Translations under genes and position numbers: made by a program
Assembly: GCA_965231135.1 (NCBI GenBank)
Contig: OZ246419.1
Span: 184,754 to 248,753, forward strand
Length of the DNA stretch: 64,000 nt
DNA from: an uncultured Gammaproteobacteria bacterium
GTDB lineage: Bacteria > Patescibacteriota > Microgenomatia > UBA8517
Reading direction: 5' to 3'
Shown here: positions 1-49,930 of the stretch, piece by piece
Layout: every line of letters starts with the position of its first letter
Numbering within the stretch: the first letter of the stretch is position 1
The notes under the pieces: generated by a model
What the model was told of the DNA's origin: nothing
Databases searched by the model: none
What the model saw: the letters and a program-made list of their open reading frames with translations, nothing else

Positions 1-234
1 TTCTTTACGCCATGGGCACTATCTCCGCGCATTATGTTTTTGTATCACTATCTGCCCTCAATTCCCTTTATGGCGATTTTAATTGCATATGTTTTAAGAA
101 GATTTAAAGAATGGAGAATTCCATTTTTTGTTCTTGCCCTAATTTTATTTATTTATTTTTATCCACACTGGGCGGGACTTAAAATTCCATTGCAACTTGA
201 TACTTCATATTACTGGTTCCCAAGCTGGAGATAA
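1..234 (+). CDS. 3' end of an integral membrane protein; the gene continues upstream of the window
   Basis: A hydrophobic ORF (helices such as IPFMAILIAYVL and FFVLALILFIYFY) runs off the 5' edge. The tail resembles family-39 glycosyltransferase (PMT-like) tails, but the match is weak. Confidence 0.3.
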   Translation, partial: FFTPWALSPRIMFLYHYLPSIPFMAILIAYVLRRFKEWRIPFFVLALILFIYFYPHWAGLKIPLQLDTSYYWFPSWR

Positions 235-4655: not shown

Positions 4656-4714
4656 GGCAGGATAGTTATTTCAATATACCATATGAAAGAATGTGAAAGA
4701 ACTATCGCGAAGCG

Positions 4715-4729
4715 ACAAGCTTCGCTTAT
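4715..4729 (-). repeat. stop-codon-embedded hairpin motif ATAAGCGAAGCTTGT at the 3' end of rpsT (a member of the dispersed family)
   Basis: The reverse complement of 4715..4729 reads ATAAGC-GAA-GCTTGT with the rpsT TAA stop inside it. It extends to a 7-bp stem GCGAAGC/GCTTCGC. Confidence 0.5.
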
Positions 4730-4974
4730 TTTTTCTTTGAAGTTTTATTTAACTTTGAGAGAGAGGATTTGATTCTTGCAGCTTTGTTTTTATGAATAGT
4801 GTGCTTTTTAGCAGCACGATCTGCAAGAGACATTGCAGATTTAATTGCTTTATCGCTTTTTGATTTTTTTGCTTGTCTAATTGCTGCCTCAAGCTTTTTT
4901 ATAATAGATAAATTAATGATTCCTTTTTTTGTGGAACCTCTTAACGCTCTTTTTGCTGATACTGTTACTGGCAT
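4726..4974 (-). CDS. rpsT: 30S ribosomal protein S20
   Basis: Basic 82-aa protein carrying the IHKNKAAR signature of S20. Confidence 0.85.
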   Translation of the reverse strand: MPVTVSAKRALRGSTKKGIINLSIIKKLEAAIRQAKKSKSDKAIKSAMSLADRAAKKHTIHKNKAARIKSSLSKLNKTSKKK

Positions 4975-5001
4975 ATCTTCAAGTATAATATAAATTCAGG
5001 C

Positions 5002-11629: not shown

Positions 11630-12649
11630 TTAAGGATGAATGCCTGGATAAAGAGCATACTTTCGTTTCACTTTTTCCCACATTCGTTGTAAATCCAGAT
11701 CTTTGTATTCAGTAGTTCTTTTTTCATCTTTTTCGTATGGTCTTTGAATGTTGTAAAGTTTTGGTGTTGGAAGATTATCGTTTTGTTTACTCAGATAATC
11801 ATGAAGTCGCTTTATTGTTGTTTGGAATCCGTAATCAACAGAACACCAGCTTCCCGTCATTGCAACTCCTGAGTCAAACATCCATCCACCTGAAGGATTT
11901 TTGACTTCTGGAATTCCATAATAAGAGATAATATTGCCATATTCTGTAAGTGATTTAAGATTCTCGTTATCTCTTATCGGGCTTGCTATAACTACTCCTT
12001 CAATTATTTTTTTAGGATCCAACTCCTTTTTTAAAAGTTCACTGTTAACTTGACCCATAGCTCCTTTTAGTTTGGTTCCACTTAATATGAAATCGTCTGG
12101 TATGAGAACCTTTGAATGGTCTGGATCTATTGCACAGCGCCTAGCTATTGCTGAAGTGTCTGTTTCTAATTTAATCCTTCCTCTTATTTCAGGGAATTGT
12201 TCTGTTTGTGAATCTATCTCTTCTAGAATTCTAAGTGTTATGTATTGCGGGCTTCTGTCTTGATAGGGATATAAGTAGACTGTTTTTCCTTGTTGTGCGG
12301 TTTCAATAATGTGTCGTGCTAGTCCATATGATGCTTCTTGGAGTTCGTGTTCGCCAAGAAATACTAAGTTTTCTCCGAACGATGTTGCGAGTTGGAGAGT
12401 TTCCTGCGAATTTTTGTTACTATTTTTTTGTGAAATTGTTTTGACCTCATTTATATAATTGGAAATTTGATTAATTCCTTCTGCTTCAGTTATTTTATTT
12501 TCATACCCTCGATTGAATGGAACACCTTCTGGAATTGATGTGATCATATTGGTTCGAGGAACGGGATGGTCGAGGACTTGTTTTAATTTTGGGCCCTCTT
12601 TAAAGTATATAAAACTCTGTTCACGGTTATTGATTTCTGTTTCTGACAC
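11630..12649 (-). CDS. hypothetical protein with a PRTase-like PRPP-binding motif
   Basis: VLIPDDFILSGTKL fits the phosphoribosyltransferase motif, but the protein is not an obvious purine or pyrimidine salvage enzyme. Confidence 0.35.
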   Translation of the reverse strand: MSETEINNREQSFIYFKEGPKLKQVLDHPVPRTNMITSIPEGVPFNRGYENKITEAEGINQISNYINEVKTISQKNSNKNSQETLQLATSFGENLVFLGEHELQEASYGLARHIIETAQQGKTVYLYPYQDRSPQYITLRILEEIDSQTEQFPEIRGRIKLETDTSAIARRCAIDPDHSKVLIPDDFILSGTKLKGAMGQVNSELLKKELDPKKIIEGVVIASPIRDNENLKSLTEYGNIISYYGIPEVKNPSGGWMFDSGVAMTGSWCSVDYGFQTTIKRLHDYLSKQNDNLPTPKLYNIQRPYEKDEKRTTEYKDLDLQRMWEKVKRKYALYPGIHP

Positions 12650-12677
12650 AATTAATTATAAAACAAAAAACATTTGT

Positions 12678-12706
12678 TTGACTTCAAAAAGTAATAAGCG
12701 TAAACT
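12678..12706 (+). promoter_or_regulatory. sigma70-like promoter TTGACT-17-TAAACT upstream of nusA
   Basis: Good -35 and -10 hexamers with 17-nt spacing. No other plus-strand gene lies upstream. Confidence 0.45.
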
Positions 12707-12717
12707 ACTTTTAGTTA

Positions 12718-12741
12718 GGTGGGAAAGTTCCCGCCTTTTTT
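12718..12741 (+). terminator. intrinsic-terminator-like hairpin plus U6 in the nusA leader (candidate attenuator)
   Basis: GGUGGGA-AAGU-UCCCGCC forms a 7-bp stem with a 4-nt loop, followed by UUUUUU. It ends 12 nt before the nusA ATG. Confidence 0.5.
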
Positions 12742-12752
12742 ATTAACACATT

Positions 12753-13841
12753 ATGCCAGCACAAACAGCTAGAACAGAATTTGCACAAGCACTTAAAGCA
12801 GTTGCTACCCAAACAGGGCTTGATGCAGATGTAATTATTGAACAAGTAAAGCAAGCAATAATTGCTGCATATAAGCGAGATGCAAGAGAAGAAGGAATTG
12901 ATACAGAAATTAAAAATTATGATGTCGAGATTCATCCAGTAAGCGGTGAAATGAGAATTTTTGCATCAGATGTCGAAACTGGAGAAAACAAAGAAGACGT
13001 AACTCCTCCTGGATTTGGACGTATTGCTGCACAAACTGCAAAACAAGTAATTCATCAGAAACTTCGAGAAGCAGAACACGGAGCAGTTATTGCACAATTT
13101 GAAGGGAAAGTGGGAACTTTGGTTTCAGGAATGGTTCTTCGCTTTGATGGCGGAGATGTGCGAGTTGAAATTGGGAAAGCTGAAGGAATAATGCCTTATG
13201 ACAAAAGGATTCCAAACGAAAGATTAAATCTTAACCAAAGATTAACTTTTTTATTTGAAGAAGTAAAAGAAACTCCACGAGGACAAGAAATAATATTATC
13301 GCGCAATTCTGAAGAGTTTGTAAAGAAATTATTTGAACGAGAAGTTCCTGAAATCTCCTCAGGCAATGTACAGATAAAAGCAATTTCAAGAGAAGCTGGA
13401 ATTCGTACTAAAATCGCCGTTTATTCAAATCAAAGCGGCGTTGATCCAGTTGGAAGCTGTGTTGGGCAAAAAGGAGTGCGTGTACAGGCTGTTACAAATG
13501 AACTTGGAGGAGAGCGAATTGATATTATAGCTTGGACTGATGAAGAAAAAGATTTTGTAAAAGCATCACTTTCTCCAGTTGAAGTAATTTCAATTAAACT
13601 TGAGAAGAAAGAGAAAAAAGCTACTGTTGAAGTAGCTGCCGATGCACTTTCAATTGCAATTGGAGCAAACGGGCAAAATGTACGCCTTGCATCGAAGTTA
13701 ACTGGATACGAGATAGACATAAAAGCTGACGAAACGAAGAAAGCTGAAGAGGTACATGAAGAGCTAAAAGAAGAAAAACCAAAAGAAAGCGATGAGAAAA
13801 AAGAAGAGTTTTTAGCAAAAGAAGAAACTCAAGAGAAATGA
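12753..13841 (+). CDS. nusA: transcription termination/antitermination factor NusA
   Basis: N-terminal domain, S1 domain and two KH domains (VGSCVGQKGVRVQAVTNELGGERIDII). Confidence 0.9.
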   Translation: MPAQTARTEFAQALKAVATQTGLDADVIIEQVKQAIIAAYKRDAREEGIDTEIKNYDVEIHPVSGEMRIFASDVETGENKEDVTPPGFGRIAAQTAKQVIHQKLREAEHGAVIAQFEGKVGTLVSGMVLRFDGGDVRVEIGKAEGIMPYDKRIPNERLNLNQRLTFLFEEVKETPRGQEIILSRNSEEFVKKLFEREVPEISSGNVQIKAISREAGIRTKIAVYSNQSGVDPVGSCVGQKGVRVQAVTNELGGERIDIIAWTDEEKDFVKASLSPVEVISIKLEKKEKKATVEVAADALSIAIGANGQNVRLASKLTGYEIDIKADETKKAEEVHEELKEEKPKESDEKKEEFLAKEETQEK

Positions 13842-13853
13842 TAGGCGCAATTT

Positions 13854-15227
13854 ATGAATACAAGAGTTCCCATTGTAACTGTAGTCGGCCATGTCGATCA
13901 TGGAAAAACTTCACTGCTTGATGCAATACGCAAAACATCTGTAACAAAAAGGGAAGCTGGAGGAATTACACAATCAATTGGAGCAAGCGTAGCTACAACT
14001 TCGAACGATTCAAAAATAACTTTTATTGATACTCCAGGGCATGCACTTTTTGCAAACATGAGATCGCGGGGAGTAAATATGGCAGATATTGCGATTTTGG
14101 TTGTTGCAGCGGATGACGGAGCGCAACCGCAAACTAAAGAAGCAATAAAGCTTTTACAAGAATCACAAACACCATTTGTGGTTGCTGTAACAAAAATCGA
14201 TTTACCAACAGCTAATATTGAAATAGCATTGCAATCGCTTGAAAAAGAAGGAGTCTATTTTGAAAAACGCGGAGGAGATGTGAGTTATATTGGCGTTTCT
14301 TCGAAGACTGGAGAAGGAATAAATGAACTTTTGGATTTAATCAGTTTAGTAAGTGAAGTAAATGAAATAAAAGGGAACGAAAATGACCCACTTAATGGAT
14401 ATGTAATTGAAACTGCAAAAGATAAAAGAGGACAGCTTGTATCAATTGTTTTAAAGAGCGGAAAAATTAAAATAGGGGATGAAATTTTTGCAAATACTTT
14501 AAAAGCAAAAGTAAAAGGTTTATTTGATGACAATCAAAAACCGACTAAAGAAGTGATTGCTGGGTATCCAGCGCAGGTGCTTGGATTTGATGAACTTCCA
14601 AAAGTAGGTAGTATTATTTCTTCTGAAGTACATGAAGAAAAGAAAGTTGAAAATAAGATTTCTAATAACACAGAAGCTAAATTAAAAATATTTGTGAAGG
14701 CAAAAACGGCAGGAAGCCTTGAGGCACTTCTTGCTAATGTTCCAGCAGGGGTTCAAGTTGTTGCGTCAGGGGTGGGCGATGTTATTGAATCAGATATTTT
14801 TATTGCAAAAGCAGGAAACGCTGATATTTATTTGTTTGAATCAAAATTTTCAAATCAAATAAAGAAACTTGCTGAAACAGAAAGCGTTAAATTAGAAAGA
14901 TATGATGTAATTTACGATTTGCTTGATAAACTTTCTGAAATTTTAGAAAAGGGAAAGGAAGAAATTTTAGGGAAGGCTGAAATAATTGCAAGTTTTCCGT
15001 TTAATGATAAAAGAGTTGCCGGATGCAAAATTATAAGCGGGAAAATTACTAAAGGAACAAGCGTGAAACTAATGAGAGGAGAAAAAGAATTAGGGAGAGT
15101 CAAGATCACTTCGATAAGAAAACAAAAAGTAGAAGCGCTTGAAGTAAAGCAGGGAGAAGAATGTGGAATCTTAATGCTGCCGCAACTTGATTTTGAGGCT
15201 CATGATATGTTACTATCGGTCGCGTAA
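13854..15227 (+). CDS. infB: translation initiation factor IF-2, minimal form that starts at the G domain
   Basis: [24 protein letters not shown] and the C-terminal beta-barrels. It is only 457 aa. Confidence 0.9.
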   Translation: MNTRVPIVTVVGHVDHGKTSLLDAIRKTSVTKREAGGITQSIGASVATTSNDSKITFIDTPGHALFANMRSRGVNMADIAILVVAADDGAQPQTKEAIKLLQESQTPFVVAVTKIDLPTANIEIALQSLEKEGVYFEKRGGDVSYIGVSSKTGEGINELLDLISLVSEVNEIKGNENDPLNGYVIETAKDKRGQLVSIVLKSGKIKIGDEIFANTLKAKVKGLFDDNQKPTKEVIAGYPAQVLGFDELPKVGSIISSEVHEEKKVENKISNNTEAKLKIFVKAKTAGSLEALLANVPAGVQVVASGVGDVIESDIFIAKAGNADIYLFESKFSNQIKKLAETESVKLERYDVIYDLLDKLSEILEKGKEEILGKAEIIASFPFNDKRVAGCKIISGKITKGTSVKLMRGEKELGRVKITSIRKQKVEALEVKQGEECGILMLPQLDFEAHDMLLSVA

Positions 15228-15235
15228 GTTGAAAT

Positions 15236-16063
15236 ATGCAAAATTCACTTAAATCAGTTATAAGTACAGCAAAATCTATTTTGATTTTATTACCGGAGAA
15301 TCCATCTTTTGATGAGGTGGCTTCAGCTACGGCTCTTTATCAAGCTATGACAACTGATAAAGATAAAGAGGTAAACGAATATTGCCCAAGCCCAATGATT
15401 GTTGAATATAACCGATTAATTGGCGTAAATAAGATAAAAAGCGAACTTGGAAATAAAAATCTTACTTTAAGTTTTTCAGGATATAATCCTCAAGGAATTG
15501 AGAAAGTTTCCTGGGATATTGACGATGGACAATTTAAATTGACAATAGTTCCAAAAGTGAATGTTGCTCCGCCAAATCAGGATCAAGTAATTGTGGGCTA
15601 CGAAGGAATTGCAGCTGATTATGTCATTTTAATTGGAGGAAAAGGAGATGAAAGTTTCCCAGTTTTGAAAAAAGAAGAGCTTGCAAGTGTAGCACTTGCT
15701 CATGTGGGAATTAACCCATTAACATTGACCGGAAAAACAATTGCATCTTTGGCATCACAAGCTTCAAGTATTTCAGAATTAACAGCAAATTTAATTAAAG
15801 CAAGCGGATACGAAATTACAAACGATATTGCAACAAACTTGCTTATGGGAATTGAAGAAACAACAAACCATTTTGCAAATTCTGGTGTAACTGCTGATAC
15901 ATTTGCACTTATTTCAGAATTAATGCGCGACGGAGGGAAGAGATTGAATCAAGGACAAGTGCAAGCTGAAGATTTTCCAACTGGAGCCATCCCAACTATG
16001 CCAAGCGATGTTCCAACTTCATGGACAGAACCAAAGATTTTTAAAGGGACTTCAGTAAGTTAA
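15236..16063 (+). CDS. NrnA-like DHH/DHHA1 family protein, apparently catalytically degenerate
   Basis: The spacing pattern matches NrnA, but DHH and the Asp ligands are replaced (ILILLPENPSFDEVAS). Confidence 0.35.
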   Translation: MQNSLKSVISTAKSILILLPENPSFDEVASATALYQAMTTDKDKEVNEYCPSPMIVEYNRLIGVNKIKSELGNKNLTLSFSGYNPQGIEKVSWDIDDGQFKLTIVPKVNVAPPNQDQVIVGYEGIAADYVILIGGKGDESFPVLKKEELASVALAHVGINPLTLTGKTIASLASQASSISELTANLIKASGYEITNDIATNLLMGIEETTNHFANSGVTADTFALISELMRDGGKRLNQGQVQAEDFPTGAIPTMPSDVPTSWTEPKIFKGTSVS

Positions 16064-16064
16064 A

Positions 16065-16427
16065 ATGTCAAAAGCGGATAACGAACAAAATTTAGGAGCT
16101 GCAGAATTAAATTCGAGATTAACCAATCCAGAGTTTTTGATTGAAGCTGGTGCGAAGTTTATTGCAGATAATGATGAAGAATTTTTCGCTATTGCTGAAT
16201 ATTATCGTGATTTTGGAAATGTACTGCCTATGAATATTGAAAGGATGGGTGAATTATTAGATGGCTTGGACTTTTTGGTTGGAAGACTTTCTATACTTTT
16301 TCCTGAATACAAACAAAGACTTGGTGACTTAAACAGTTTTGGTCAAAGCCATACAGTACTACACAAAAAAGTAGAGACAGAGTTGTTTTTGAAGAGAGCA
16401 AAGGCTTTTGCAGATTTAACAAAGTAG
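16065..16427 (+). CDS. hypothetical protein
   Basis: 120-aa acidic ORF in the nusA-infB-rpsO operon. It is not RbfA-like. Confidence 0.35.
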   Translation: MSKADNEQNLGAAELNSRLTNPEFLIEAGAKFIADNDEEFFAIAEYYRDFGNVLPMNIERMGELLDGLDFLVGRLSILFPEYKQRLGDLNSFGQSHTVLHKKVETELFLKRAKAFADLTK

Positions 16428-16496
16428 TGATATACTACTTAAGATCGTAAACACAGTTTTGATTGAAATATCATTACTTTGTTACTGATGACATGT

Positions 16497-16787
16497 ATGG
16501 CATTACAAATAGACGAGAAACAATCTATAATTAAAAAGTACGCTCGAGAAAAAGGCGATACTGGAAGCCCTGAAGTACAAATTGCGTTACTTACTTCTCA
16601 GATTGAGAAATTAGTAAAACATTTAGGTGAACATGGAAAAGATGTAAACTCAAGACGCGGCCTTTTATCAATGGTTGCAAAGCGACGCAGACTTTTAAGC
16701 TATCTCCAAAAAAGAGATAAAGAGAGATTTGATAAACTCTCACAAGGATTAGGATTAAAGAAATCAAATAAAAATGAAGAAAAATAA
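16497..16787 (+). CDS. rpsO: 30S ribosomal protein S15
   Basis: GDTGSPEVQIALLTSQI...HSRRGLL matches S15. The start is taken at MALQI (ATG at 16497); the track ORF starts from TTG at 16479. Confidence 0.85.
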   Translation: MALQIDEKQSIIKKYAREKGDTGSPEVQIALLTSQIEKLVKHLGEHGKDVNSRRGLLSMVAKRRRLLSYLQKRDKERFDKLSQGLGLKKSNKNEEK

Positions 16788-16814
16788 GCAGAGCTTGTCA
16801 GCTAAAGCTGATAA
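16784..16814 (+). repeat. 31-nt compound palindromic element ATAAGCAGAGCTTGTCAGCTAAAGCTGATAA in the rpsO-pnp spacer
   Basis: It contains the rpsO TAA stop. A copy inside rpoB (37616-37646) matches it at 30 of 31 positions, and shorter copies sit at other gene ends. Confidence 0.6.
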
Positions 16815-16815
16815 C

Positions 16816-19128
16816 ATGATAGAAAAGTCCATTGATCTTGGCGGACGAAAACTTACACTTCAAACAGGAAAAATAGCTGGACAAGCTGATGGAGCAGTTC
16901 TAGCTACATACGGCGAAACAGTAGTGCTTGCGACTGTAGTATCTGCAACCCCAAAAATGGTTGTAGACTTTTTACCTCTAACAGTTGATTATCAGGAAAA
17001 ACTTTATGCTGGAGGAAGGATAAAAGGAAGCAGATGGGTAAAACGAGACGGAAAACCATCTGATGAAGAGATTTTAACTTCAAGAGTAATTGATCGTAGC
17101 ATTAGACCTTTGTTTCCAAAAGAATACCGCAATGAAGTACAGGTTATTGTTACAGTTTTATCAGTAGATAAAGAAAATGATCCAAAAATTGTTGGAGCTA
17201 CTGCAGTTTCTGCAGCACTTGCGATGAGCACTGTTCCTTGGATGGGGCCAGTTGCTCCAATCTGCGTAGGACTTAAAGATGGACAATACATTTTGAATCC
17301 AACAGATTCTCAAATGCAAGAATCAAGTCTTGATCTTGTAGTTTCTGCAACTGACAAAGCAGTTGTAATGGTTGAAGCAGGCGCCGCAGAAGTAAGCGAG
17401 GAAGAAGTACAAAAAGGAATTGCTTTTGCACAGGATGAAGGACAAGTTTTAATAAAATTGATAAATGAATTTGCAAAAGAAGTAGGGAAGACAAAACAAG
17501 TTGTAGTTGAACATAAATACGATAAAACAATTGAAGAGAAAGTTAAAAAGGCAATTGGAAACAAATTTGATGAAATTATTCCTGAAATGGCCACAAAAGA
17601 AATGGCTGGGGGGATGTTTTTTGAACTTAAGAATGCAATAATTGATTCTTTTGAAAAAGATAGCGAAAAAATAGAAGCTGCTGAAGTTTATGAAAAATTA
17701 TTTAAGAAAGCAGTACGAGAAATTTTACTTTCTGGAAAGCGACCAGACGGACGAAGCCACACAGAAATAAGACCAATTTGGATTGAAGTTGGCGTACTTC
17801 CACGAACACACGGATCTGCAATATTTACAAGAGGACAAACACAGGTCCTGTCGATTGCAACTCTTGGAACAAGCCAAGTATCACAACTGCTTGAAACAGC
17901 AGAAGGAGAAGAAGAGAAAAATTACATGCATTACTACACAATGGCTCCTTTTACAACTGGAGAGACCGGAAAAGTAGGATCTCCAAACAGACGCGAAATT
18001 GGACATGGGGCACTTGCAGAGCGAGCATTGCAACCAGTTGTTCCTTCTATGAAAGATTTTCCATATACAATTCAAGTAAATTCTGAAGTCATGAGCTCAA
18101 ATGGTTCAACTTCCATGGCAAGCACCTGCGGAAGCACACTTGCTTTGATGGATGCCGGAGTTCCAATAAAATCTCCAGTTTCAGGAATTGCAATGGGTTT
18201 AATTGTTGAAGATGATAAAAAATATGCAGTATTAACTGACATTATTGGACTTGAAGATTTTAATGGTGACATGGATTTTAAAGTTACAGGGACTGATAAA
18301 GGAATTACTGCACTTCAGCTTGATGTAAAAACTTTACAATTAACTCCTAAAATTTTGGGAGAAGCACTTGAACAATCAAAGGCAGCAAGAAAAGAAATTA
18401 TGGATAAAATAAAAGCTGCAATTGCAGAACCAAGGCAATCAGTTTCAAAATATGCACCAAAGATAAAGACAATCAAAATTGATCCAGCAAAAATCGGCGA
18501 AGTTGTAGGCAGCGGAGGCAAAACAATTAAGAAAATAGTTGCAGAAACTGGAGCTGATGTAAAAGTGGAAGATGATGGAAGCGTAAATATTTCTGCAATT
18601 GACAGTGAGGCAATGCAGAAAGCAGTAGATTGGATTGAAGGACTTGTAAAAGAAGTACAACCTGGAGAAATTTATGAAGGAGAAGTAGTTCGTATTCAGC
18701 CATTTGGAGCTTTTGTACAAATACTTCCAGGCAAAGACGGCATGGTTCATGTATCTGATATGAGCGAGAATCCAGAAGAATTTGTCGACAATGCTGAAAG
18801 CAAAGTAAAAGTAGGAGATAAAGTAAAGGTGAGAGTAAAAGAAGTTGATCAAATGGGCAGAATTAATCTTTCAATGAGAATGGATCCATCGACTGATAAA
18901 CAAAAATCTGACCGCAACGGCGGAGATCGAGGAGGACGTGGAGGCTTCAGAGGAGGAGACAGACGGGGCGGTTTTGGCAGACGAGATGATCGAGGGCCAA
19001 GAAGAAGTTTTGGCGGACAGAGGAGAGATTTTCACAGAAACGATAGAGGATTTTCACGAGGAAGAAATGATGGGGAACAAGGCGGACCTCATTTTCCAGC
19101 TAGCAGATTTGTTGAAGAAAACAAATAA
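16816..19128 (+). CDS. pnp: polyribonucleotide nucleotidyltransferase (PNPase) with a C-terminal RGG-rich tail
   Basis: Two RNase PH domains plus KH and S1 domains. The start is taken at MIEKSIDLGGRKLTLQTGK, which aligns with E. coli PNPase residue 1; the track ORF extends to 16774. The last roughly 75 aa are Arg/Gly-rich. Confidence 0.9.
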   Translation: MIEKSIDLGGRKLTLQTGKIAGQADGAVLATYGETVVLATVVSATPKMVVDFLPLTVDYQEKLYAGGRIKGSRWVKRDGKPSDEEILTSRVIDRSIRPLFPKEYRNEVQVIVTVLSVDKENDPKIVGATAVSAALAMSTVPWMGPVAPICVGLKDGQYILNPTDSQMQESSLDLVVSATDKAVVMVEAGAAEVSEEEVQKGIAFAQDEGQVLIKLINEFAKEVGKTKQVVVEHKYDKTIEEKVKKAIGNKFDEIIPEMATKEMAGGMFFELKNAIIDSFEKDSEKIEAAEVYEKLFKKAVREILLSGKRPDGRSHTEIRPIWIEVGVLPRTHGSAIFTRGQTQVLSIATLGTSQVSQLLETAEGEEEKNYMHYYTMAPFTTGETGKVGSPNRREIGHGALAERALQPVVPSMKDFPYTIQVNSEVMSSNGSTSMASTCGSTLALMDAGVPIKSPVSGIAMGLIVEDDKKYAVLTDIIGLEDFNGDMDFKVTGTDKGITALQLDVKTLQLTPKILGEALEQSKAARKEIMDKIKAAIAEPRQSVSKYAPKIKTIKIDPAKIGEVVGSGGKTIKKIVAETGADVKVEDDGSVNISAIDSEAMQKAVDWIEGLVKEVQPGEIYEGEVVRIQPFGAFVQILPGKDGMVHVSDMSENPEEFVDNAESKVKVGDKVKVRVKEVDQMGRINLSMRMDPSTDKQKSDRNGGDRGGRGGFRGGDRRGGFGRRDDRGPRRSFGGQRRDFHRNDRGFSRGRNDGEQGGPHFPASRFVEENK

Positions 19129-26559: not shown

Positions 26560-26799
26560 ATGAGTGGAGTAGAAACTTTATTAACAATTGTCGTTGTAGC
26601 TTTAGCGATACTTTTTATTTTTGTGGGAGTTCAAGTGACTTTAGTCATACTTGATTTAAGACGCACGATAAGAAGATTAAATAGTTTACTTGAAGATGCA
26701 ATTTTGGGTGGAGGATTAATAAGACCTGATAAATTAACTGGAGTGTTGGAGTTTTTTAGAAAGAAAAGGGAAACAGGCAGCCACGGACAGCAAATTTAA
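26560..26799 (+). CDS. hypothetical small membrane protein
   Basis: 79 aa with one TM helix. Confidence 0.3.
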   Translation: MSGVETLLTIVVVALAILFIFVGVQVTLVILDLRRTIRRLNSLLEDAILGGGLIRPDKLTGVLEFFRKKRETGSHGQQI

Positions 26800-29422: not shown

Positions 29423-29455
29423 ATAAGCTGAGCTTGTAACACTGCGTGTTATAAT
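29423..29455 (+). promoter_or_regulatory. motif copy ATAAGCTGAGCTTGTA followed by an extended -10 (TGtTATAAT) that gives a leaderless alaS transcript
   Basis: TGTTATAAT at 29447-29455. The alaS ATG at 29462 sits where the transcription start is expected. Confidence 0.4.
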
Positions 29456-48269: not shown

Positions 48270-48581
48270 ATGCCAGTTGGAAGACTTAGAGTCAAATTAA
48301 AAGCATATGATGCTCGCGTTCTAGATGAAGCAGCAAGTAAAATACTTGAGACTGCTATTGCAACCGGCGCAAAAATCGTTGGACCAATCCCCTTACCTAC
48401 AAAAAGAAGTATAGTTTCTATTGTGCCATCAACCTCAAGAGGAATTAAAAATCATCAAGATCATTATGAAATGTTAGTTCATAAAAGATTAATTGACATT
48501 GTGGATCCATCTGATCGTACAATTGATTCATTATCTAATTTAGATCTTCCAGCAGGTGTCTCCATTGAGATTAAGATGTAA
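48270..48581 (+). CDS. rpsJ: 30S ribosomal protein S10
   Basis: RLRVKLKAYD...GPIPLPT matches S10. Confidence 0.9.
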   Translation: MPVGRLRVKLKAYDARVLDEAASKILETAIATGAKIVGPIPLPTKRSIVSIVPSTSRGIKNHQDHYEMLVHKRLIDIVDPSDRTIDSLSNLDLPAGVSIEIKM

Positions 48582-48587
48582 GATTGC

Positions 48588-49022
48588 TTATATCTTAAAA
48601 TCCTTCTTAATTTTATTAAGTATTTTTTCTTTAATGATTGGAAAATTGACTATTTCTTGAGTGTATTGTTCTTTATTTAGGTCCGAAATTAGATTTCCAA
48701 AGCCAGACTTGCTTTGTTCTGATTTCTCTGGTCTAATTCCTGCAAAACCAACTGCTCCACAGTGAGGGCATGGTCCTTCTATCCACTCTTTGGCAGTACA
48801 TTTCCAGCATTTACCACATCTACAACAATCTCTTAATATGCATTCATCCGGACTGTTTGTATCTTTTATGCCACAAAAAGGTAAAACCTCTTTTGGTTTT
48901 GTCATGGTAGTTACAACTTTATTGCAATCTGGACAGACGCTTCCTGCTGGGAGAAATGCCCCGCATATTTGACAGAAAGATGTGTTGTCTAGTTTTTCTG
49001 AAGACATTTGATGATTATACAA
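48588..49022 (-). CDS. cysteine-rich small metal-binding protein (15 Cys) on the opposite strand to the flanking ribosomal genes
   Basis: CQIC...CPDC form a zinc-ribbon pair. A dense CILRDCCRCGKCWKC...CPHC cluster follows; it contains CxxCxxC...CP. Confidence 0.45.
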   Translation of the reverse strand: MYNHQMSSEKLDNTSFCQICGAFLPAGSVCPDCNKVVTTMTKPKEVLPFCGIKDTNSPDECILRDCCRCGKCWKCTAKEWIEGPCPHCGAVGFAGIRPEKSEQSKSGFGNLISDLNKEQYTQEIVNFPIIKEKILNKIKKDFKI

Positions 49023-49101
49023 TAAATCGAACTTAAATTCTATTATTATAGGTTTAAATAGAGTATTTTATTTTTTTGTAACGCATAGCATTTAGCCTTG
49101 C

Positions 49102-49130
49102 TTGCAAGCTTGCCTTCAGTTTGATATAAT
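49102..49130 (+). promoter_or_regulatory. promoter TTGCAA-17-TATAAT with an extended -10 (TGaTATAAT) for the rplC operon
   Basis: The -10 is at 49125-49130, preceded by TG at 49122-49123. Confidence 0.5.
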
Positions 49131-49201
49131 TTCACTTAATAAATGAGGAGGGGAACCGCCTAACTAACCTCGAGGTAGTCTTGATTTGAAACCAGTAACT
49201 G

Positions 49202-49224
49202 GGTGTCGACGAGACACCTTTTTT
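49202..49224 (+). terminator. hairpin ggtgtc-gacga-gacacc plus U6 in the rplC leader (candidate attenuator)
   Basis: 6-bp GC-rich stem and TTTTTT, lying 38 nt upstream of the rplC ATG. An orphan AGGAGG and a 6-codon mini-ORF (49143-49163) lie upstream in the same leader. Confidence 0.45.
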
Positions 49225-49261
49225 ATTGTCTCTAGCTAGGCATGTTAGCGTTACGACTAAT

Positions 49262-49930
49262 ATGATAAATAAAGTCCTTGGAATTAAAAAAGAAATGGGA
49301 GCTACTTTTAACGAAGGAGTAAGAGTTCCTGTGACTAAAGTTGCAATTGAAAATTGTGTTGTGACTGAAGTCAAAACACAAGACCGTGACGGCTACTGGT
49401 CAGTCCAACTTGGTGTAGGACACAAGAAAGCAAAGAATATTACCAAACCAATGAAAGGCCATCTTCTCAAAACAAAAGACGCAAAAGAAACTCCAAAATA
49501 TTTACCAAGATTTATTAAAGAAATAAGAACTCAAGAAGAACCTACGGAAAAAGTCGGAAATGAAATAAAAGCTTCCGACATTTTTGTTTCTGGAGATAAG
49601 GTTAGCGTTACTGGAGTTTCTAAGGGAAAAGGGTTTGCTGGAGGAGTTAAAAGGTGGCACTTTAGAGGAGGAAGCAAGACTCATGGACAATCAGACCGTT
49701 GGAGAGCACCAGGATCAATTGGACAAGGAACAACTCCAGGAAGAGTTTATAAAGGCAAACACATGGCAGGACACATGGGAGTAGAACAAATAAAAGTTAA
49801 AGGACTCAAAATAGTTTCAGTTGATGCAGAAAAGAATGAAATACTTGTAAGCGGAGCAATTCCAGGAACAGTCGGAGGTTTAGTAATTCTTGAAAGAATT
49901 GGAGAAAGAAAGGAACAAGCAAATGCTTAA
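49262..49930 (+). CDS. rplC: 50S ribosomal protein L3
   Basis: MINKVLGIKKEMG...VPVTKV...GKGFAGGVKRW. The start is taken at the internal ATG at 49262. Confidence 0.9.
   Translation: MINKVLGIKKEMGATFNEGVRVPVTKVAIENCVVTEVKTQDRDGYWSVQLGVGHKKAKNITKPMKGHLLKTKDAKETPKYLPRFIKEIRTQEEPTEKVGNEIKASDIFVSGDKVSVTGVSKGKGFAGGVKRWHFRGGSKTHGQSDRWRAPGSIGQGTTPGRVYKGKHMAGHMGVEQIKVKGLKIVSVDAEKNEILVSGAIPGTVGGLVILERIGERKEQANA

Follow-up and report, generated by a model that had tools for sequence, protein, structure and literature searches.

A rimP-leader-type candidate attenuator directly before nusA in a Patescibacteria (CPR) genome, with NusA as the most likely effector

The 64-kb stretch of DNA analyzed here (hereafter the window) is densely coded, has a G+C content of 36%, and belongs to a Patescibacteria (CPR) bacterium placed near Woesebacteria/Microgenomates, with Woesebacteria as the nearest named relatives. 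An open reading frame on its plus strand (12753–13841, 362 aa) was identified as nusA by the TIGR01953 model (327.5 bits against a cutoff of 253.4) together with the Pfam families NusA_N and KH_5; the encoded protein carries the N-terminal, S1, KH1 and KH2 domains and is devoid of the C-terminal AR domains. It is followed on the same strand (13854–19128) by infB, two unassigned ORFs of 275 and 120 aa, rpsO and pnp, and the tight spacing and common strand make it likely that nusA-infB...pnp is co-transcribed. The IF2 encoded here (13854–15227) has only 457 aa (456–474 aa in relatives), as it extends from the GTPase domain to the C-terminus and lacks the long N-terminal region. The two unassigned ORFs (15236–16427) occupy the positions of truB and rbfA in other bacteria; neither of them matched any Pfam or NCBIfam model, and the 275-aa ORF is kept in relatives. 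The neighborhood is the classical nusA-infB...rpsO-pnp arrangement minus rimP: searches with Pfam and NCBIfam families found no RimP encoded at the nusA locus, so the leader directly precedes nusA.

On the other side of the leader, no tRNA gene such as metY was found upstream of nusA, and the neighboring gene (11630–12649, 339 aa) is divergent. Since it lies on the minus strand, no plus-strand gene ends just upstream of nusA, in line with the initial annotation, which had pointed out that nothing upstream needs terminating there. The GTG start region of this divergent gene (12647–12660, minus strand) has a TATAAT hexamer 5 nt upstream (12655–12660), i.e., a leaderless-type promoter, and the segment 12650–12752 is a divergent intergenic promoter region.

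Within this region, a consensus scan placed a −35 hexamer (TTGACT, 12678–12683) and, after a 17-nt spacer, a −10 hexamer (TAAACT, 12701–12706) on the plus strand, as the promoter of the nusA operon, which confirms the TTGACT-17-TAAACT promoter proposed previously for nusA. Judging from the promoter geometry, transcription would start at the A or G at 12713/12714, 7–8 nt past the −10 hexamer, and an AG at this distance is kept in the closest relatives. The predicted start is separated by 3–4 unpaired nucleotides from a terminator hairpin (12717–12736) that reads AGGTGGGA (12717–12724), loop AAGT, and TCCCGCCT (12729–12736) in the DNA, and that pairs in the RNA as 5′ arm AGGUGGGA and 3′ arm UCCCGCCU around the loop AAGU. 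The stem has eight pairs (five G-C and one G·U), a folding energy of −12.7 kcal/mol, and contains the core G(U)GGG...CCC(G/A)C of the attenuator class known as rimP-leader. It runs directly into a U-tract (T6, 12736–12741, then ATTAA), the first T of which is able to pair with A12717. The GC-rich hairpin with six U residues noted earlier before nusA was thus recovered, and its distance to the gene, given then as 12 nt, was effectively right, as the A/U-rich spacer between the U-tract and the ATG at 12753 measures 11 nt (12742–12752); this spacer is without a Shine-Dalgarno sequence. When the segment 12713–12800 was folded, the leader hairpin was the sole stable structure, and no competing or antiterminator fold and no larger sensor domain was found in it. 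The fold z-score of the whole leader (−1.13) is unremarkable, as expected for a single short hairpin.

Such motifs are within chance expectation when a single sequence is considered, as five promoter-like sites were counted between 11500 and 14000 (6.8 expected) and two terminator-like sites (1.4 expected), neither of which is above chance; their significance comes from conservation and from an independent covariance model. Canonical terminators are scarce across the 64-kb window, and the nusA leader terminator is the strongest of them. Its stem includes one internal G·U and an A-U pair at the base, but the U6 that follows, before AUU, is unbroken. The idea that all strong hairpin plus T-run sites of the window sit in 5′ leaders was dropped because one such site (4707–4725) ends a small S20-like gene of the minus strand. 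At this site the hairpin GCGAAGC-ttgtc-GCTTCGC lies right past the S20-like stop codon, with the T-run on the plus-strand side; the gene (4707–4990, coding part approximately 4726–4990) is rpsT (S20)-like by eye and falls below the 90-aa ORF cutoff.

Two further observations in the window concern leaders elsewhere. A second leader-type terminator was seen at 49124–49262, where a TATAAT hexamer (49124–49129) is followed by an RNA of approximately 75 nt containing GGAGG and by the hairpin GGGTGTCGACGAGACACCT with T6 (49201–49225); rplC probably starts approximately 40 nt further on (ATG at 49263, MINKVLGIKKEMG). This element may be an attenuator of the L3-L4 ribosomal protein operon; it had no Rfam match, and its fold z-score is unremarkable. 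Next to it (48270–49262), rpsJ (S10) is separated from rplC by approximately 680 bp, so the usual S10-L3 adjacency is broken, and the gap holds a minus-strand, Cys-rich ORF of 144 aa (48588–49022) that was assigned to no Pfam or NCBIfam family. The other observation is that TATAAT-like hexamers lie 5–8 nt before the start codons of many first genes of transcription units (e.g., 12655–12660 on the minus strand, 29445–29450, and 26632–26637 on the minus strand), a pattern that suggests, at the level of sequence, that leaderless mRNAs are widespread in this CPR bacterium. Many internal genes of the window also have no Shine-Dalgarno sequence.

The conservation of the leader was followed in nusA loci collected from metagenomes and genomes, for which an alignment-based scan was needed (a single-protein scan gave none), and the set considered here consists of the 22 Microgenomates-like loci with enough upstream DNA, in which NusA is 49–81% identical. 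All 22 have the pattern GGYGGG-loop-CCYRCC, with a loop of 3–10 nt, followed by T5–8, and the 41-nt segments ending at the T-run folded with −10.5 to −14.8 kcal/mol. All but one of these loci, i.e., 21, also place the hairpin 11–36 nt 3′ of a promoter with TTGAC[TG] as the −35 hexamer at the matching position and, 17–18 nt past it, TAnAnT as the −10 hexamer. The initial annotation had named the absence of a leader structure in related genomes among the results that would refute its reading, and with the hairpin present in 22/22 and the promoter in 21/22 loci, the reading passed this check. The relatives differ in the sequence of the loop, in the spacing between U-run and ATG (2–91 nt) and in the upstream gene, which may be dnaJ, another plus-strand gene, or a divergent minus-strand gene. 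Hairpin and U-run are thus linked to the promoter and to nusA, whereas they follow neither the start codon nor the gene upstream.

The pairing itself is also kept. In a MAFFT alignment, 90.8% of the cells were paired, vs. 41–62% when the partners were slid, and this alignment (A4) includes some noise, since one locus (L081) is cut at a contig end and another (L091) is misaligned. The pair at the base of the stem switches between U-A (12 loci) and A-U (8 loci), and the fourth pair is U·G in 10 loci, U-A in 9 and C-G in 2. The frequent G·U pairs fit a helix in plus-strand RNA, and not a DNA palindrome or a structure of minus-strand RNA.

In more distant CPR lineages (Paceibacteria, Saccharibacteria, and others), different hairpins with T-runs precede nusA, often just past a TATAAT. 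A terminator-like site within 200 nt of nusA was counted in 15 of 20 CPR loci, where approximately 0.1 was expected per locus; the corresponding binomial tail of approximately 1e−11 is to be read with the reservation that the loci are not phylogenetically independent. One Paceibacterota locus (L062, 2215–2264) has a TATAAT followed after 10 nt by AAGAGCGGA-gaaa-TCCGCTCTTTTT, approximately 570 nt 5′ of nusA. Its hairpin has the shape of a firmicute rimP-leader, with CGGA/TCCG replacing TGGG/CCCA, and between hairpin and nusA there may be a gene, perhaps rimP.

Outside the CPR, the same motif was found in five phyla. Chloroflexi have A-GTGGG-loop-CCCAC-T with a T-rich tail before nusA, Firmicutes have (A)AGAGTGGG-loop-CCCACTCTTTC upstream of rimP (Bacillus, Neobacillus, Paenibacillus, Brevibacillus, Planococcus, Thermosediminibacter, Desulfitobacteriaceae, Selenomonas, Anaerovibrio), and the motif is also present in Acidimicrobiia (Actinobacteria), Acidobacteriota and Omnitrophota, so that the core GUGGG...CCCAC with a U-rich tail lies upstream of rimP-nusA or nusA in all five. 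The pattern used for collection was found at the expected place in most of the non-CPR loci. In an alignment of 36 such leaders (A2), the five apical pairs G-U-G-G-G / C-C-C-A-C are fixed except for a change from U-A to U-G, an invariance that is partly by construction and hence inflated, since some core positions were prescribed by the collection pattern. Covariation was seen in the four basal pairs (A-U/C-G and G-C/A-U), with 19 double changes, a value reached by none of 500 shuffles.

These 36 non-CPR leaders only were used to build a covariance model (R1; 31 positions, 7 pairs). Searched against both strands of the 64-kb window with filters off, R1 returned the nusA leader as its top match (12715–12746, 20.8 bits, E = 0.0022), ahead of the next match at E = 0.045; these E-values are rough because the calibration was shortened. 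The second match (107–136, plus strand, AAGAATGGAgaaTTCCATTTTTTG) lies near the window edge, convergent with a minus-strand gene (210–635), and resembles a common terminator, belonging to a gene beyond the left edge of the window. When R1 was run over 360 kb of CPR loci, 22 matches had E ≤ 1, and 19 of these were nusA-leader hairpins. Rfam 15 gave no relevant match in the window at gathering or relaxed thresholds, and it also gave none on the Bacillus, Paenibacillus and Selenomonas leaders or on the Chloroflexi loci.

These features correspond to the rimP-leader, which the relevant section of Naville & Gautheret (2010, Genome Biol 11:R97; PMC2965389) describes as a terminator, short and conserved, that precedes rimP-nusA-infB in the 5′ UTR, and as the most widespread attenuator class at that time. 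According to that section, the hairpin has a G-rich 5′ arm and a C-rich 3′ arm, its conserved GGGc(...)gCCC motif is unusual, a T-stretch comes next, there is no antiterminator, and it lies 4–130 nt from the gene start; in Gammaproteobacteria a tandem terminator with the inverse motif is present. The regulator proposed there is a motif-specific termination protein, most probably NusA, with feedback by RimP also considered. The leader in the window likewise places a terminator in the nusA-infB 5′ leader, between a conserved promoter and the genes, with G-rich and C-rich arms whose GGG...CCC core is kept in 22/22 relatives and shared with the 36 non-CPR leaders. Further points in common are the U-stretch directly past the stem (T6 here, T5–8 in relatives), the lack of an antiterminator (here approximately 4 nt would be transcribed before the hairpin), a short and variable distance to the gene (11 nt here, 2–91 nt in relatives, compared to 4–130 nt), and the fact that the site is the top match of the non-CPR model R1 in the window.

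There are differences as well. Unlike in the rimP-leader, no rimP lies between leader and nusA, the leader is only approximately 40 nt long with the hairpin approximately 4 nt past the predicted start, the stem base is G-C/A-U (AGGUGGG) and not AAGAGUGGG, and the U-tract is an unbroken U6 and not UCUUUCGUU. The host belongs to the CPR, a group that goes without mention in the rimP-leader section of PMC2965389. Compared to the known members, the leader in the window is very short and its terminator is stronger-looking. Judged by its sequence, we assign the element to the rimP-leader class, as a member located directly before nusA in a CPR genome, and not to a new kind of element or mechanism.

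Two members of this arrangement have been studied in model organisms. In Bacillus subtilis, NusA-stimulated termination in the leader autoregulates nusA (Mondal et al. 2016, as summarized in PMC12288461), and the ylxS(rimP)-nusA leader resembles the one in the window in its operon position and in the core GUGGG...CCCAC common to leaders of the Bacillus group; the proposed logic, in which NusA-stimulated termination limits nusA transcription, would by analogy be the same. The NusA dependence of the B. subtilis leader has been measured according to that summary, whereas for the element in the window we infer it. Unlike the one described here, the Bacillus leader spans approximately 180 nt, its terminator lies more than 100 nt upstream of rimP, and its U-tract is interrupted; the firmicute homologues have interrupted U-tracts as well (UCUUUCGUU). 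NusA-dependent terminators are typically suboptimal, with a weak stem base or, as tends to be the case in B. subtilis, distal interruptions of the U-tract (PMC8060035). In Escherichia coli, NusA controls its own operon, and two terminators, t1 and t2, lie upstream of rimP (PMC6511841). The metY-rimP-nusA-infB operon has the hairpin GGGC-tttag-GCCC with T7 approximately 20 nt before rimP, similar to the leader in the window, and NusA represses this operon (PMC6511841). Unlike the locus described here, the E. coli operon includes a tRNA gene and is served by several promoters, and a terminator with the inverse motif CCCCG...CGGGG stands in tandem upstream. In E. coli K-12 the top match of R1 was the hairpin before rimP, with 6.5 bits only, a score that is low because the stem is much shorter.

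Taken as a regulatory element, the locus is probably a rimP-leader-type attenuator placed directly before nusA, with NusA as the most likely effector; the transcription start, the termination event and the role of NusA are predicted from the arrangement. RNA polymerase would start at approximately 12713/12714 at the conserved near-consensus promoter, the hairpin would form from approximately +4 to +24, and a fraction of the polymerases would be released in the U-tract, at approximately +25 to +30. Only the read-through RNA would encode NusA, IF2 and the downstream products. As the leader is too short to hold a competing structure, control would have to come from a trans-acting factor that sets the read-through fraction. 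This factor is most likely NusA, which by promoting hairpin-driven termination would hold its own level constant (negative feedback), and homology to the characterized leaders makes it the best candidate. The conserved motif is an RNA hairpin with a U-tract 3′ of a conserved promoter, and its core is common to the rimP/nusA leaders of other phyla. With the hairpin only approximately 4 nt from the predicted 5′ end, termination would occur very near the promoter, which is a prediction of this model. The solid stem (8 bp, five of them G-C) and the unbroken U6 resemble a strong terminator, so the sensitivity to NusA could be small. The negative-feedback reading of the initial annotation is supported through homology (the rimP-leader signature, the B. 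subtilis member of the class, and the top match of R1) and through the comparison with relatives, and its effector, NusA, is the part that we infer. The idea of an autoregulatory leader terminator is not new, as the class has been known since 2010.

The same leader terminator could have its read-through set by another factor, such as Csp RNA chaperones melting the hairpin, NusG, or another product of the operon. Antitermination by Csp proteins was proposed in E. coli (a 2000 study cited in PMC6511841), RimP feedback was also considered in the rimP-leader section of Naville & Gautheret (PMC2965389), and a strong stem with U6 argues for a low NusA dependence (PMC8060035). However, the Csp model is contested in E. 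coli by PMC6511841, RimP is not encoded at the locus in the window, and NusA is the only effector reported experimentally for the leader class in PMC12288461 (B. subtilis) and PMC6511841 (E. coli, genetic evidence), which leaves another effector rather unlikely in our view. We consider it unlikely, too, that the hairpin terminates constitutively, shielding nusA from upstream read-through or fixing its expression level without any feedback. The terminator does look strong, and in many relatives a co-directional upstream gene (dnaJ or others) ends 60–120 nt before the hairpin, so that the hairpin could terminate that gene. Against this, in 21/22 loci a promoter follows the stop codon of the upstream gene and precedes the hairpin, which means that the nusA transcripts must cross the hairpin, and the element is kept despite a divergent upstream gene in the window and in four relatives (L085, L089, L092, L095). 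Moreover, nusA/rimP leaders are the only places where the core of the stem is kept from phylum to phylum, a cross-phylum conservation that ordinary terminators do not show according to the same section of PMC2965389.

The remaining two explanations assign no terminator function to the hairpin, and the geometry of the relatives speaks against both. It is very improbable that the hairpin serves as a 5′-terminal stabilizer of the mRNA, with the U-run as a ribosome (S1) landing site for a message without Shine-Dalgarno sequence. This would suit the closest clade, where the hairpin lies approximately 4 nt from the predicted 5′ end and the U-run 2–12 nt from an AUG lacking a Shine-Dalgarno sequence. 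In other relatives, though, the hairpin lies 19–36 nt from the −10 hexamer and as many as 91 nt separate the U-run from the ATG, which in some cases has a Shine-Dalgarno sequence of its own, and in Firmicutes the motif is found more than 100 nt upstream of rimP. A stabilizer needs no stem-adjacent U-tract, yet T5–8 is invariant; a role in stabilization or translation enhancement is therefore rejected, as the spacing to the 5′ end and to the ATG differs greatly among loci, whereas the U-tract always adjoins the stem. Hardly any probability is given to a leaderless nusA mRNA starting from the −10-like TATTAA (12741–12746), 6 nt before the ATG, with the hairpin being untranscribed promoter DNA. 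TATTAA + 6 nt + ATG does match a leaderless geometry, and a TATAAT-like hexamer precedes the start codon by 5–8 nt in 10 of the window's 69 genes, compared to 2.1% of random positions. However, TATTAA is without the final T, the sequence where a −35 hexamer would be expected (TAGGTG) is not one, the ATG follows directly on the T-run in two relatives (L083 and L092), and the promoter that is conserved is instead the upstream TTGACT/TAAACT. The leaderless reading is rejected because its geometry is not conserved.

With a rimP-leader-type attenuator as the preferred reading, the nusA/rimP leader terminator reaches into the reduced genomes of Patescibacteria, where it persists though the locus is devoid of rimP, the window has few canonical terminators, and leaderless mRNAs are apparently common. 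This persistence argues for feedback control of NusA being ancient and not easily lost. With its small size, the CPR leader also offers a compact natural substrate for asking whether NusA reads the GUGGG/CCCAC core. We tentatively entertain, with more doubt than confidence, the idea that this apical core, found in Patescibacteria, Chloroflexi, Firmicutes, Actinobacteria and others, may be an ancient sequence-specific recognition element for the S1/KH domains of NusA and not merely a stable stem. If this is true, it would be among the oldest protein-sensing regulatory RNAs in bacteria, and the CPR form, with its leader of approximately 40 nt, a hairpin at approximately +4, no rimP and no Shine-Dalgarno sequence, would be a minimal natural version and a convenient test system.
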